A DNA stretch of 64,000 bases from Schmidtea polychroa (Eukaryota), in NCBI GenBank assembly GCA_044892525.1, contig CM097885.1, forward strand, positions 33,172,001 to 33,236,000. Reading direction: 5' to 3'. Shown here in pieces: positions 17,451 to 46,291 of this stretch. The notes under the pieces were generated by a model, which had not been told where the DNA came from, searched no databases, and saw only the letters and a program-made list of their open reading frames with translations. The position numbers were made by a program, and so were the translations under genes. Numbering within the stretch: position 1 is the first letter of the stretch; each line of letters opens with the position of its first letter.

Positions 17451-17594
17451 AGTAGAGGGATAGCGGCCCACTAAACCAGCGGCCCTCTGGGACAAAGACA
17501 TACCCCCCCACCACCCCCGCCATTTAAAATTTTTTTTCAAAGTCAAATTTTAAACAAAGACATATTACTCACCAAGGTCATTGAAACAAAGACC

Positions 17595-17708
17595 ATGACT
17601 CATCCAATGACTCATTCAAGGACATATGACTCATCCGATGACTCATTCAAGGTCATATGACTCATCCGATGACTCATTCAAGGTCATATGACTCATCCGA
17701 TGAGTCAT
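17595..17708. promoter_or_regulatory. 31-bp tandem repeat array with 8 AP-1-type sites (TGA(C/G)TCA) and TCAAGGTCA nuclear-receptor-type sites
   Basis: Unit ATGACTCATCCGATGACTCATTCAAGGTCAT; regulatory function is inferred. Confidence 0.6.
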
Positions 17709-18767
17709 TCTAAATTTTTTTAAATTTAAATTCTCAGAGTTCCCGCCAATGGTTTTTATTATTTAATAGCTCATTCGAAAGGTATTTGAATGGTGAGTAT
17801 TTGAAACCATCGAAGGTCTATGGAGGTTCAATAACCTTCAAAGAGTTCAATGGTATTGGTTACACTCAACATCTCATAATGGTATTATTATTAATATTAT
17901 TATTATTATTATTATTATTATTATTATTATTATTATTATTAACATCATTATTATTATCATTATTATTATTATTTAAAAATGTATAAAATTGAAACTATCA
18001 CAAGTTTTCAAAATACCAATAAAAATGAAAATGACCATATTAAAAGTAGTTATCATTACTAATAATAAAAATGTTTAAACTTGAAAATTATCACATGTTT
18101 TCAATATAACAATAAAAATGCAAATATTAAAAGATGTTATTATTACGATTATTAAAAATGATTAAACTTGAAAACTATCACAAGTTTTTAATACACCAAT
18201 AAAAATGAACACATGAAGTCTAGTTTTTTTTTTTTTAAAAAAGATATATTTTTAATAATATTCATCATTATCATTATCAGTTAATAATATATCATCAATA
18301 TCAACATCTATATCGATACTATCATCGAAATCTGAGTTGAAATCTCCACAAAGCGGTCGAACATCATCCAATATTTGATCCTTATCATCGAAATCTTGGC
18401 TGAAATCTCCACATAGCTGGTTACAATCAACATATCGCAAGTTTATTTTTATTATTATTATTATTATTATTATTATTATTATTATTTTTATTATTATTTT
18501 TATTATTATTATTATTATTATTATTATTATTATTATTATTATTATTATTATTATTATTATTATTATTATTATTATTTTTATTAAAAAATGTTTAAACTTG
18601 AAAACTATCACATGTTTTCAAAATAATAATAAAAATACACATATTAAAAGATGTTATTATTACAATTATTAAAAATGATTAAATTTGAAAACTATCCGAA
18701 GTTTTTAATACATCAATAAAAAATAAAAAAGAACACATTAAAAGTCTAGTTTTTAAAGAAGATATAT

Positions 18768-20145
18768 TTAATAATAGTCGTCATCATCATCATCAGTTAA
18801 TATTATATCGTCTATATCAACATCTATATCGATACTATCATCGAAATCTGGGCTGAAACCTCCACAAAGCGGTCCAACTTCCTTTAATATTTGATGACTT
18901 TCATCGAAATCTGGACTGAAACCTACAGAGAGCGGTCCAACTTCATCCAATACTTGATCACTATCTACAGCATCAACCCCAAAATAATGCCCAAATGCGA
19001 TACTATTATTTTTCCCCACCCATAATCGCTTGTCATCGTTATTTGTCAATGCGATTTTACTATTTTTGATGGTATATAGCTGGTGGTTCCGCGTCCCTAT
19101 CCTAGTTTGCGGCACTGCAAATTCTACGTTGTTATTGTAGCAGTTTAAATATGACTGGTGCCCAATCTCTGTCCCCATTAATTTCACCCCTTTAGCCCTC
19201 ATAGTATCTTTGACACCTAATAAACTATAGCACTTAGGTCTTAAGAAAACCCATTCCTTATACCCGAGACCTTTGCTTTCATCTTTAAATTTTTCCTATC
19301 ACAGAATCAAGGTTTCTCGAGTATAAGGGGTGTGCGGGATCATAATTAGAGGTATCTAGAAGATTATCTCTTATCATTGCCGGCAAAAGAGTGTCTAGCT
19401 TACAGTGCTTAACCTCAAGAAAAAACGAATCAGTATCGCCGGCAACGATATTTATATCACATAAGAATTCGGATCTATATTTTGCCAATTCATTATATTG
19501 CAGTTGATACATGCGTAGTTTAGACAGGTCTAGCACTGATTGGCCTATGTAGCTAGGCCTGTCTAAACATATAATATCTTTATTAAGATGAACCGCAATC
19601 AGATCATCCGCTATTTTAATTGATTTTTTGAAAGTTGGTTTGGAGGCGTATACAATCATCTTTGCTGATGAATTGCATAGCCTCAAATTCATACGTTTTT
19701 TCAAATTCTCTACTGACTTACCATAGAGACTATTATTGAATAATTTATATAGATCTCAATGCAGTTCACATGTTGATTTTGAACGTAAATTAGTATTTCG
19801 ATCTATATATGTTTTGAAAATTGTTGATTGTTTAAATTTAATTGCTCTATGTACATGCTCAACTTCCGCACCTAATTCTATATACAGCTTGAGAAGCCGC
19901 CAATGAAGAACATGGTTCTTCTTAGGCCAATGCGTGAGCATAAGCTTCTCAACCTTTGAATTAGGTGGACACATTTTTTCCGGAGCAAGCGGAAAATCAT
20001 TCAAATATTCATGCACACGATTAGGGATATTGATGTCTACTTCCATAGTATAACTATATGGAAGGTTTTCAATATCTGCATTCACGCATTCACTCAACAC
20101 ATCATTCAGATTTTCATACACCCAAACAAAGTCACCATACGGAAG
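18768..20145 (-). pseudogene. Left-arm pPolB copy, C-terminal part
   Basis: Near-identical to 42560-43840; has YKLFNNSLYGK, AGDTDS, NDDKR; extra frameshift near 19290; keeps the acidic tail. Confidence 0.9.
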
Positions 20146-20476
20146 AGTAGTGAGGAATCTATGCACCCCAGCACCCCCACCCTCAAAAAAAAACAGCGCT
20201 ATTGACCCATATTTTCCACATTTATATGCTTTTTTACCCCATATTCTTCACTTTTTTTAACTTTTAAACTTTGTCCCCTATTGCCATTAACCCTTAATTT
20301 CTTCCCTTAAAAGTAAAAAAGTTCGGAATAGATGTATTTATAGATTAGTAATTCCGAGAAAAGGTAACGGGGTGCATAGATTCCTCACTACTTGGTCTTA
20401 AGGATTTAATGTTAAAAGGATTTAATGTTATAAGAATATCAGATTACCTAATTCATAATGATCTAGGTCGTCTGAT
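20146..20476 (+). repeat. Left TIR of the inner Polinton
   Basis: Reverse complement of 34857-35167, plus one extra 16-bp duplication near 20400. Confidence 0.9.
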
Positions 20477-20552
20477 CACTTTTAGATTTAAAAAAAATAA
20501 AAATTAATATCAAAACCAAAACATCGTATCCAACCAAAAAATTCTTTTAAAA

Positions 20553-43856: not shown

Positions 43857-44601
43857 TCATTTTTAATAATTGTAATAATAACATCTTTTAATATGTGTAT
43901 TTTTATTATTATTTTGAAAACATGTGATAGTTTTCAAGTTTAAACATTTTTTAATAAAAATAATAATAATAATAATAATAATAATAATAATAATAATAAT
44001 AATAATAATAATAATAATAATAATAATAATAATAAACTTGCGATATGTTGATTGTAACCAGCTATGTGGAGATTTCAGCCAAGATTTGGATGATAAGGAT
44101 CAAATATTGGATGATGTTCGACCGCTTTGTGGAGATTTCAACTCAGATTTCGATGATAGTATCGATATAGATGTTGATATTGATGATATATTATTAACTG
44201 ATAATGATAATGATGAATATTATTAAAAATATATCTTTTTTAAAAAAAAAAACTAGACTTCATGTGTTCATTTTTATTGGTGTATTAAAAACTTGTGATA
44301 GTTTTCAAGTTTAATCATTTTTAATAATCGTAATAATAACATCTTTTAATATTTGTATTTTTATTGTTATATTGAAAACTTGTGATAGTTTCAATTTTAT
44401 ACATTTTTAAATAATAATAATAATGATAATAATAATGATGTTAATAATAATAATAATAAAAATAAGTAATAATGGTAATAATAATAATAATAATAATAAT
44501 AATAATAATACCATTATGAGATGTTGAGTGTAACCAATACGGTTGTGAGCAATAACCATAAGGAGACAAAATATCTTGTCGGATAAACTCAGAGTATACC
44601 T

Positions 44602-44973
44602 TTGTTTGACGACAAACCAAAATGGTCAAAGCATCCAGGAAAAAGAATATCTCAAAGATTGGAGAATTTAGAAAACAGTTATGAACTATCATTTGCATAT
44701 ATACAAAATATAAAAATTAAATTGATCGATCATATTGAAGTTTTCAATAACTCTATTGTTGAAAATAAAAAGAATATGAAAATTATTGATAAGAAGCATG
44801 ATTATTTGTTAAAAAAGATCGAATTATTAGTAAGAGAAATTCAAACAAACAAAGGATCAATAGAATATCTGAAAATCAATTCAACGTTACCAATTTCAAA
44901 CAATATTGCTGCGAATACTAGTACATCAATATTTAGTTTACCTTTGCTAATTTTACATTATTTTATTGTTTAA
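44602..44973 (+). CDS. Coiled-coil ORF fragment with hydrophobic C-terminal tail, present in the right arm only
   Basis: 123-aa open frame without a clear ATG, followed by AATAAA; flanked by ~55-bp direct repeats. Confidence 0.35.
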   Translation: MFDDKPKWSKHPGKRISQRLENLENSYELSFAYIQNIKIKLIDHIEVFNNSIVENKKNMKIIDKKHDYLLKKIELLVREIQTNKGSIEYLKINSTLPISNNIAANTSTSIFSLPLLILHYFIV

Positions 44974-45466
44974 ATAAATGTATGTTTTGTTGATTTGTTT
45001 AATAATACCCTTGTGACTTGTTGAGTGTGAGCAGTACCCTTGTGAGCATTACCCATAGGGGGGACAAAATATTTTGTCGGATAAACTCGGAGTATAAATA
45101 TATATATATATATATATATATATATATATATATATATATATATATATATATATATATATATATATATATATATATATATATATATATATATATATATATA
45201 TATATTAATATTACTAATAATATTAATAATAATAATAATAATAATAATAATAATAATAATAATAATAATAATAATAATATTAATAATAATAATAATAGTG
45301 AGATGTTGAGTGTAACCAATATCATTGAACTCTTTGAAGGTTATTGAACCTCCATAGACCTTCGATGGTCTCAAATACTCACCATTCAAATACCTTTCGA
45401 ATGAGCTATTAAATAATAAAAACCATTGGCGGGAACTCTGAGAATTTAAATTTAAAAAAATTTAGC

Positions 45467-45623
45467 ATGACTCATCGGATGAGTCATATGACCTTGAATG
45501 AGGCATCGGATGAGTCATATGACCTTGAATGAGTCATCGGATGAGTCATCGGATGAGTCATATGACCTTGAATGAGTCATCGGATGAGTCATATGACCTT
45601 GAATGAGTCATAGGATGAGTCGT
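45467..45623. promoter_or_regulatory. Right-arm copy of the AP-1/TCAAGGTCA tandem array (9 perfect TGA(C/G)TCA)
   Basis: Reverse complement of 17595-17708 with a different copy number. Confidence 0.6.
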
Positions 45624-46291
45624 GGTCTTTGTTTCAATGACCTTGGTGAGTAATATGTCTTTGTTTAAAATTTGACCTTGAAAAAAAAATTTTTAATGGC
45701 GGGAGGTGTGGGGGTGGGGGTGGGGGGTATGTCTTTGTCCCAGGGGGCCGCTGGTTTAGTGGGCCGCTGGTTTAGTGGGCCGCTATCCCTCTACTTTCCT
45801 TCTTCATTTTTTGTTTAATATTTAAGAACGATATTGTCGTATTTCATTGTTTAATTTTAACTGAATCTCATTTTTCTTTGATTTTCAATTTCTTTTTAGT
45901 ACATTTTTGATTTTTAGAATTCTGGAACAACCCATCCTCCATTTCATATATTTCCCACCTGATATTTTATTCATTTAATAATTATTGTATTTTATTATTT
46001 AGGTATCCGCAATGAAACGAAATGTGACGACAAATTTTTCATGCTGCTTGTTGCGTTATCCAACGATATTCCTAGAAGTACCCGAAAGAGTCACCGTTAA
46101 AAAAAAGTATTGTGGCGGTACAATCGGGGTGCGTGTATGTATACAAATAATAAAATTATTATATATAAAAATAATAATGTATCACAATTAATAACTACAA
46201 TAGTTGTTACTAATAATTATTAATTAATATAGTCAAGTAATTAACCAACCTTGAGGTCCTTGGGAATTAGGTCCAACTTAGAAATTTAGAT

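Follow-up and report, generated by a model that had tools for sequence, protein, structure and literature searches.

A Polinton of Schmidtea polychroa in which an inverted copy of the polymerase end stands in place of the integrase and capsid half

Architecture of the outer element and its nested Polinton

The DNA analysed here is a 64-kb window of the Schmidtea polychroa genome (assembly GCA_044892525.1, contig CM097885.1, positions 33,172,001 to 33,236,000), and genome-wide searches were run on the 781-Mb assembly. Positions 17451–45795 of the window are occupied by a Polinton derivative, referred to below as the outer element, which is not an autonomous member of its family and is interrupted by a second, nested Polinton. 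The outer element begins with AGTAGAGGG at 17451 and ends with CCCTCTACT at 45795 (AGTAG.../...CTACT), with AGT-type end motifs and inverted repeats present. It is enclosed by a 6-bp target site duplication (TSD), TTCCTT, at 17445–17450 and 45796–45801 (plus strand); the chance of a 6-mer match between two random host-like positions of the window is ∼0.001 (0.1%). Inverted arms of ∼4.6 and ∼5.1 kb extend through the pPolB gene and are separated by a unique spacer of 3.65 kb. Self-comparison of the window showed that the inner arms (35168–37043 and 42569–40694) are 99.9% identical over 1876 bp, that the outer arm parts (18864–20146 and 43844–42563) are 99.1% identical, and that the terminal parts align out to both element ends with large indels. 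When the nested element and one copy of its TSD are subtracted, the outer element has a net length of 13,317 bp.

The right arm (40694–45795, plus strand) runs from within pPolB through subterminal repeats into the full right terminal inverted repeat (TIR, ∼44610–45795) that finishes in CCCTCTACT. The original pPolB gene (40155–43856, plus strand; DNA_pol_B_2, E = 8e-14) contains in-frame stops at 42213–42215 and 42951–42953. The left arm lies on the minus strand, its outer part (17969–20145) being an inverted copy of subterminal DNA from the polymerase side and of the 3′ portion of pPolB, and its inner part (35168–37043) of the inverted middle region of pPolB. The polymerase gene is thus present twice and neither copy is intact: the same two in-frame stops are found in both (at 19756–19758 and 35522–35524 in the left arm), and the left-arm copy is additionally truncated, split, and frameshifted (at 19290). 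The left arm is without ∼750 bp of the inner TIR, which is kept in 22 of 24 sister polymerase ends and absent in the other two, and it retains a 173-bp segment (18694–18866) that was lost from the right arm and is kept in all 24 of 24 sisters. The left terminal segment (17451–17968, plus strand) forms the outer TIR, which starts with AGTAGAGGG and finishes in an (AAT)n tract. It differs from the right end by ∼10 substitutions in the first 426 aligned bp and has no private mutation in common with it among the few that were scored; it is possibly the original left TIR.

At the novel junction (37040–37067, plus strand), the left arm finishes with ...AAGTAAAT at 37043, the counterpart of 40694 in the right arm. 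The motif AAAT both closes the arm and opens what is left of the protease, and the 14-bp AAATGAATTTGTTG is present twice in tandem, a templated duplication that was counted as a 9–10-nt templated insert. The sequence that follows is a 5′-truncated adenain-type cysteine protease (37054–37357, plus strand; Peptidase_C5, E = 9e-7), which matches Peptidase_C5 from residue 5 on. The missing 5′ part of the protease, with the capsid gene upstream, is found in sister loci, and in nine of the nine that were fetched, the DNA leading into the protease is the gene's own 5′ part with family sequence upstream of it, not polymerase DNA. Between the protease and pPolB lies a small gene (37759–38455, plus strand) that seems to be interrupted by short GT-AG introns, an unusual feature in a Polinton. 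Its exons are guesses by sequence inspection only, and its longest exon open reading frame (ORF) has no Pfam match. The protease start in sister copies may likewise be spliced. ORFs for a retroviral-type integrase, a packaging ATPase, and capsid proteins are absent from the outer element. The termini, the TSD, the kilobase-long arms through pPolB, the decapitated protease with its microhomology and duplication, and the missing genes had all been described in a sequence-only reading of this locus, and each of them was confirmed. The nested Polinton, the stops common to both arms, and the uneven similarity of the arms go beyond that reading.

The nested Polinton (20146–35167, 15.0 kb) is a complete element of another family with a TIR of ∼370 bp. 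It is found in the left arm only, which it splits, and is flanked by the TSD CGGAAG at 20140–20145 and 35168–35173; the right arm contains CGGAAG as a single copy. Its genes comprise pPolB (20553–24602), an A32 ATPase, an rve integrase, and a split double-jelly-roll capsid ORF; a phospholipase-A2-like domain (PF08398) lies at the N terminus of the integrase ORF. The insertion is young, with 99–100% identity to its best sisters over 1.2 kb, at least 39 sisters at 99–100% over the integrase region, and 11 of 3911 sites private, five of these forming a single cluster. Dating through this element was tried and set aside, because it is too young to give a useful lower bound.

Parent family and related long-armed elements

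The family to which the outer element belongs was identified in the genome, including the full-length parent with an intact protease and with integrase, ATPase, and capsid genes that the sequence-only reading had called for. Full copies are 17.9–18.3 kb long, with TIRs of ∼1.0–1.1 kb and 6-bp TSDs. The family has ∼100 copies (104 matches to the pPolB marker), the terminal 18-mer occurs at 269 places, and at least 39 further matches to the protease region were obtained, with 40 of 2667 candidates scored. The parent encodes a TBP-like ORF (154 aa; PF00352, E = 4e-15; L022:7978–8439), an A32 ATPase, an rve integrase, the protease, pPolB, and a 406-aa ORF without a Pfam match, whose Atlas neighbours at 0.97–0.98 include double-jelly-roll clusters. 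The 8.3 kb of parent DNA between the left TIR and the protease have no match anywhere in the outer element, which is accordingly without the TBP-like, ATPase, integrase, and capsid genes. The two arms are identical at 8/8 rare-allele sites and therefore come from one molecule. These results support the proposal that the polymerase end was copied in inverted orientation within one molecule and took the place of the integrase and structural half. The predicted length of 13.3 kb also holds; that this is near the normal packaging size does not, given the length of full family copies.

Two copies in the genome have structures of their own. At C4:16.99 Mb (L018–L020), the protease side of the outer-element family is joined to a pPolB that is only 75% identical, an apparent module swap between subfamilies, and an otherwise full copy at C1:68.25 Mb (L015) has ∼1-kb local fold-back duplications beside the polymerase-side TIR.

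The junction pattern of the outer element has one match in the assembly with up to one mismatch allowed, and each pPolB stop in its exact 29-base context has two, which are the two arms. Searches of the assembly with the exact stop alleles and the junction returned no donor or daughter copy of this derivative, and copies of it with different TSDs were not found, the single locus being the only one. This copy is therefore most likely a dead single-locus rearrangement and not a spreading satellite, and the view of it as a satellite or defective-interfering element, with further copies of the junction to be expected elsewhere, is not supported.

Other elements of similar shape are present in the genome. 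The terminus-pair survey covered 23 pairs picked by length from the first 100 listed; the integrase-side marker has 807 matches, and only four close inverted pairs, among the first 100 matches listed, were fetched. Two long-armed elements of the same family have a TSD: in one (C1:82.53 Mb) ∼2.35 kb of the integrase-side end are mirrored, and in the other (C1:18.63 Mb) ∼1.55 kb of the polymerase-side end, so arm replacement is found in both polarities. Marker pairs revealed further cases at C1:135.6 Mb and C2:188.1 Mb, and a sister subfamily contains others at C1:0.63, 1.35, 29.6, and 42.7 Mb. Five of the six other junctions tested (C1:82.53, 29.6, 18.63, 89.1, and 195.4 Mb) are each confined to a single locus. 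The sixth (C1:0.63 Mb) has four matches on one strand in one 0.7-Mb cluster with common right flanks, and the elements at C1:0.63 and 1.35 Mb, which have one junction in common and were considered as a propagating derivative, were for this reason read as segmental duplicates. An apparent TSD, lying within an AAT tract, is still present in the C1:0.63 Mb duplicate, whereas the C1:1.35 Mb copy has lost its TSD and is mirrored for ∼3.8 kb outward from both of its ends, into a flank of older Polinton DNA. The four cases with resolvable junctions comprise the 9–10-nt templated insert of the outer element, an 11-nt insert, and microhomologies of 6 nt and 1 nt (the junctions at C1:42.7 and C1:0.63 Mb fall outside this set). 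Arm replacement in this genome is thus the product of several independent events and is recurrent, two-sided, and copy-specific.

In the four clustered duplicates at C1:0.63–1.36 Mb (L097–L100, L106–L113), the catalytic part of pPolB is replaced by the integrase-side end, and the integrase and capsid genes are kept. At C2:103.46–103.50 Mb (L104, L105), seven head-to-tail pPolB units spaced 5.5–8.6 kb apart form a tandem array of the polymerase end.

A large gene-poor, repeat-rich family (L024–L062) has the same Polinton termini as the outer element, 6-bp TSDs, and arms of 2–8 kb (up to 7.9 kb). Its marker has 359 matches; among the first 100 listed, 14 inverted pairs lie within 2 kb, nine of them at 1.13–1.30 kb, as counted by eye from marker spacing.

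Origin of the inverted arms

The history of the arms was examined through private mutations, which were defined relative to 26 sister groups (∼26 of roughly 100 sisters sampled; the minimum numbers of sisters in the three counts differed slightly and were 8, 5, and 10). Across 3148 pPolB sites in the arms, four private substitutions are shared, two of which are the stops, and three are found only in the left arm and eight only in the right; the unpaired spacer has 14 private substitutions in 2422 sites. The sharing of private mutations, including stops whose context occurs nowhere else, indicates that the arms were copied, or overwritten, once decay had begun. The presence of two stops among the four shared changes was not taken as a sign of selection, as 4 of 30 sister pieces have at least two stops. 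When the extension arms of five derivatives were pooled, 18 private changes were shared and 37 were arm-specific, compared with 9 shared and 48 end-specific changes in the inner TIRs of 14 ordinary copies, or 2 and 30 when two divergent copies were removed (Fisher p = 0.047 for all 14 and 0.007 for 12). The ordinary copies were obtained from 20, of which four had no probe at one end and two were dropped as near-duplicates. Not included in the pooled count are the sister-subfamily elements at C1:29.6, C1:42.7, and C1:0.63 Mb, for which close relatives are too scarce, and the TIR portion of C1:82.53 Mb (two shared, seven specific). This contrast between derivatives and ordinary copies is modest evidence and would be expected from in-place formation and from later conversion alike. 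Divergence between the arms of the outer element is also uneven, with 2 substitutions in 1870 bp of the inner arms versus 10 and one indel in 1278 bp of the outer parts (p = 0.003), and some arm conversion on the chromosome must therefore have taken place in any case.

Copying of this kind within the chromosome was observed at a related locus, C1:82589136–82604655 (L030, L134, L135, L142, L143). There, within a gene-poor Polinton-ended element flanked by the TSD TAAGTC, the left end of the element and ∼4–5 kb of its left flank recur in inverted orientation at 99.4–99.9% identity, and an (AAT)n tract marks the point at which this copy meets the right end again. Because a free genome has no flank to copy, this must have occurred after integration. 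By analogy, the same process running inward would yield the structure of the outer element. The captured flank contains an ORF with Ras and proteasome-subunit Pfam matches, and the structure is a possible route to cargo capture.

On these grounds, the outer element probably arose by arm replacement in place: a template switch, sealed by end joining at microhomology, would have formed the new arm, and conversion between the arms would have followed. Inversion in place after integration, which the sequence-only reading had named as an outcome that would overturn it, is now the better-supported reading, short of proof for this locus. We infer the initiating break, the invasion at the TIR or the (AAT)n tract, the end-joining pathway, and the order of events as follows. 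A normal ∼18-kb Polinton, of the family and with the termini and TSD described above, would have been integrated here by the integrase of its own family and would then have begun to decay, gaining private mutations that include the two pPolB stops now shared by the arms. The integrase/capsid half would next have been broken and mended within the chromosome. After resection into the TIR, the end to the left of the break may have strand-invaded the inverted right end, either within the same element or on the sister chromatid, probably out of register at the (AAT)n tract, and ∼4.6 kb would have been copied inward through pPolB. The ∼750-bp loss at the left end was considered as proof of such an out-of-register switch, and this argument was dropped, as a simple deletion between repeats fits equally well. 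Once disengaged, this end would have been sealed onto the protease gene through microhomology-primed end joining, giving the AAAT and the templated 14-bp duplication observed at the junction, and ∼8.3 kb of genes would have been lost with the flanks and the TSD untouched. The pathway is suggested by analogy to polymerase-theta end joining: passages of PMC2895639 report short microhomologies and flank-templated insertions at polymerase-theta or alternative end-joining junctions formed after P-element and I-SceI breaks in Drosophila, and the marks at the outer-element junction are alike. Later, the young Polinton would have entered the left arm, and the uneven divergence suggests that the inner arms were re-homogenised by gene conversion, the end product being a dead single-locus fossil.

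Several points weigh against this origin. A viral polymerase could leave similar microhomology junctions. With ∼26 of ∼100 sisters sampled, the private set may include changes that preceded insertion, and conversion after a replication-born duplication can reproduce shared private mutations. When only the three TSD-verified derivatives are considered, the count falls to 9 shared versus 19 specific changes, and p rises to 0.097 with 14 ordinary copies and 0.017 with 12; the two members of the pool of five that drop out are C2:188.1 Mb, for which neither termini nor a TSD are verified, and C1:135.6 Mb, which has an extra internal terminus and shares no private change (0 versus 5). The flank-capture case belongs to the gene-poor family with the same termini and not to the exact family of the outer element, and the gene-poor inverted pairs at similar spacing indicate that long-armed forms can probably spread in this genome.

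The main rival is an origin during replication, the reading advanced from the sequence alone. A nascent strand would have switched template during protein-primed strand-displacement replication of a free genome, yielding a 13.3-kb molecule with two polymerase ends; this product would have been integrated by a helper integrase, and later conversion would have spread new mutations, the stops among them, to both arms. Such an origin, which we regard as a minority possibility, agrees with the clean 6-bp TSD and intact termini, with the recurrence of long-armed derivatives with TSDs in both polarities, and with the gene-poor palindromic relatives, which appear to share one centre at many loci; the conversion it calls for is required under any reading. 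However, conversion would have to sweep both the inner and the outer arm, yet ordinary TIR pairs rarely share private changes. None of the tested junctions in coding families has spread by transposition, the 13.3 kb are only ∼74% of the family unit length, and a process able to make such arms in place operated at another locus. The locus-private mutations shared by the arms and the flank copying at the relative speak against birth as a copy-back genome followed by helper integration, although later conversion could mimic the sharing.

A less probable variant is that a decayed copy already containing both stops was excised and replicated in trans, underwent copy-back at that stage, and was integrated here. 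Under this variant, the TSD is kept and the stops could be common to both arms with no need for the outer arm to be converted. It requires an unseen copy, however, as no exact donor allele is present in the assembly; the closest sampled sister (L071) has 7 of the 8 rare alleles and is not among the exact stop-allele matches.

An assembly artefact, either a fold-back chimeric long read or polishing across repeats, is improbable. Cross-polishing can yield the 99.9% identity of the inner arms, but the flanks are distinct and have the correct TSD, the arms differ by the 15-kb nested insertion with its own TSD, by the ∼750-bp and 173-bp deletions, and by 12 substitutions, and the 3.65-kb unique spacer and the templated duplication at the junction would also have to be accounted for. 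Among the 32 matching read pieces listed (with 7700 further matches; assembled contigs from 4 of 21 runs), none bridges the junction and the private alleles of the locus are likewise unseen; the loose ends of read pieces at the junction are those of ordinary family copies, and this result is neutral as to the structure. Finally, insertion of two elements head-to-head with later deletion of their inner halves is scarcely credible: the family has enough copies and inverted neighbours do exist (e.g. C3:93.23 Mb), but both ends are enclosed by one TSD, and the four shared private changes and the identity at all rare-allele sites contradict it unless full conversion is added.

The rest of the window contains remnants of other elements and host-type sequences. 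A Mariner-type HTH fragment (PF17906) adjoins a decayed pPolB fragment, 67% identical to the outer-element pPolB, at 13415–15269, 2.2 kb to the left of the element. Two broken hAT transposases (9126–11511 and 52734–54500), an intronless LRR+Ig host-type ORF of 707 aa from stop to stop (48975–51098), and a fragment of a proteasome subunit that contains a 45-bp tandem repeat (55002–55586) were also found.

Relation to known systems and implications

In copy-back or snap-back defective viral genomes, one end is an inverted copy of the other, and the gene content is helper-dependent. The outer element is alike in that one of its ends is replaced by an inverted copy of the other and in its helper-dependent gene content, but it differs in having no sign of propagation, with its junction at one locus, and in that its arms were copied or homogenised after mutations had accumulated. 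The foldback transposons FB, Galileo, and Tetris move by cut-and-paste and have long, variable, repeat-rich, and copy-specific inverted arms. Long, repeat-rich, copy-specific arms are also a feature of the outer element, which is, in contrast, a Polinton derivative with coding arms. To our knowledge, Polinton replication and excision have never been directly watched.

The AGT-type termini, 6-bp TSD, pPolB, and protease are shared with the vertebrate Polintons/Mavericks described in passages of PMC8097293. According to these passages, 96% of vertebrate loci are degraded fossils, and intact Mavericks are 12.7–24.6 kb long, a range that includes 13.3 kb, with TIRs of 46–1,447 bp and seven or eight core ORFs; in contrast, the arms of the outer element reach 4.6–5.1 kb and include most of pPolB, and the integrase, ATPase, and capsids are gone. 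The closest working likeness is arm replacement in the linear, terminal-protein-capped Streptomyces chromosome, for which passages of PMC5869714 describe repair of an arm break from the opposite arm, resulting in a one-sided deletion and a larger terminal inverted repeat. That system differs in being a megabase linear replicon with homologous repeats on both arms, whereas the outer element is a 13-kb integrated element that retains both flanks and has a microhomology junction. Passages of bioRxiv 10.1101/2024.01.15.575659 report Polinton-associated inversions and remnants with TIR and pPolB but no integrase, and make no mention of mirrored arms. At the level of titles and the beginnings of abstracts, no description of arm-replaced or copy-back Polintons was found; subscription papers and supplements lie outside this search, and its result is not proof of absence.

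The value of this locus is that it provides one clear case of a recurrent process. Since such arms can form or be overwritten on the chromosome, a TSD combined with long arms is no proof of a copy-back virus genome, and the identity of TIRs is an unsafe clock for dating insertions. It would be possible to take long-armed derivatives for fossilised replication intermediates, yet such arms can be made or overwritten after integration. Tentatively, Polinton TIRs may act as recurrent primers for intramolecular inverted copying, which when directed inward would swap either half of the element and seed gene-less palindromic satellites, and when directed outward would capture kilobases of host flank. 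In the boldest form of this idea, an endogenous double-stranded DNA virus would have produced some of these structures, possibly including this one, as genuine copy-back defective genomes while replicating freely, and they would have been integrated in trans. Such priming could also account, in a way that can be tested, for how the gene-less palindromic satellites of this genome arose and how flanking DNA came to lie between Polinton termini.

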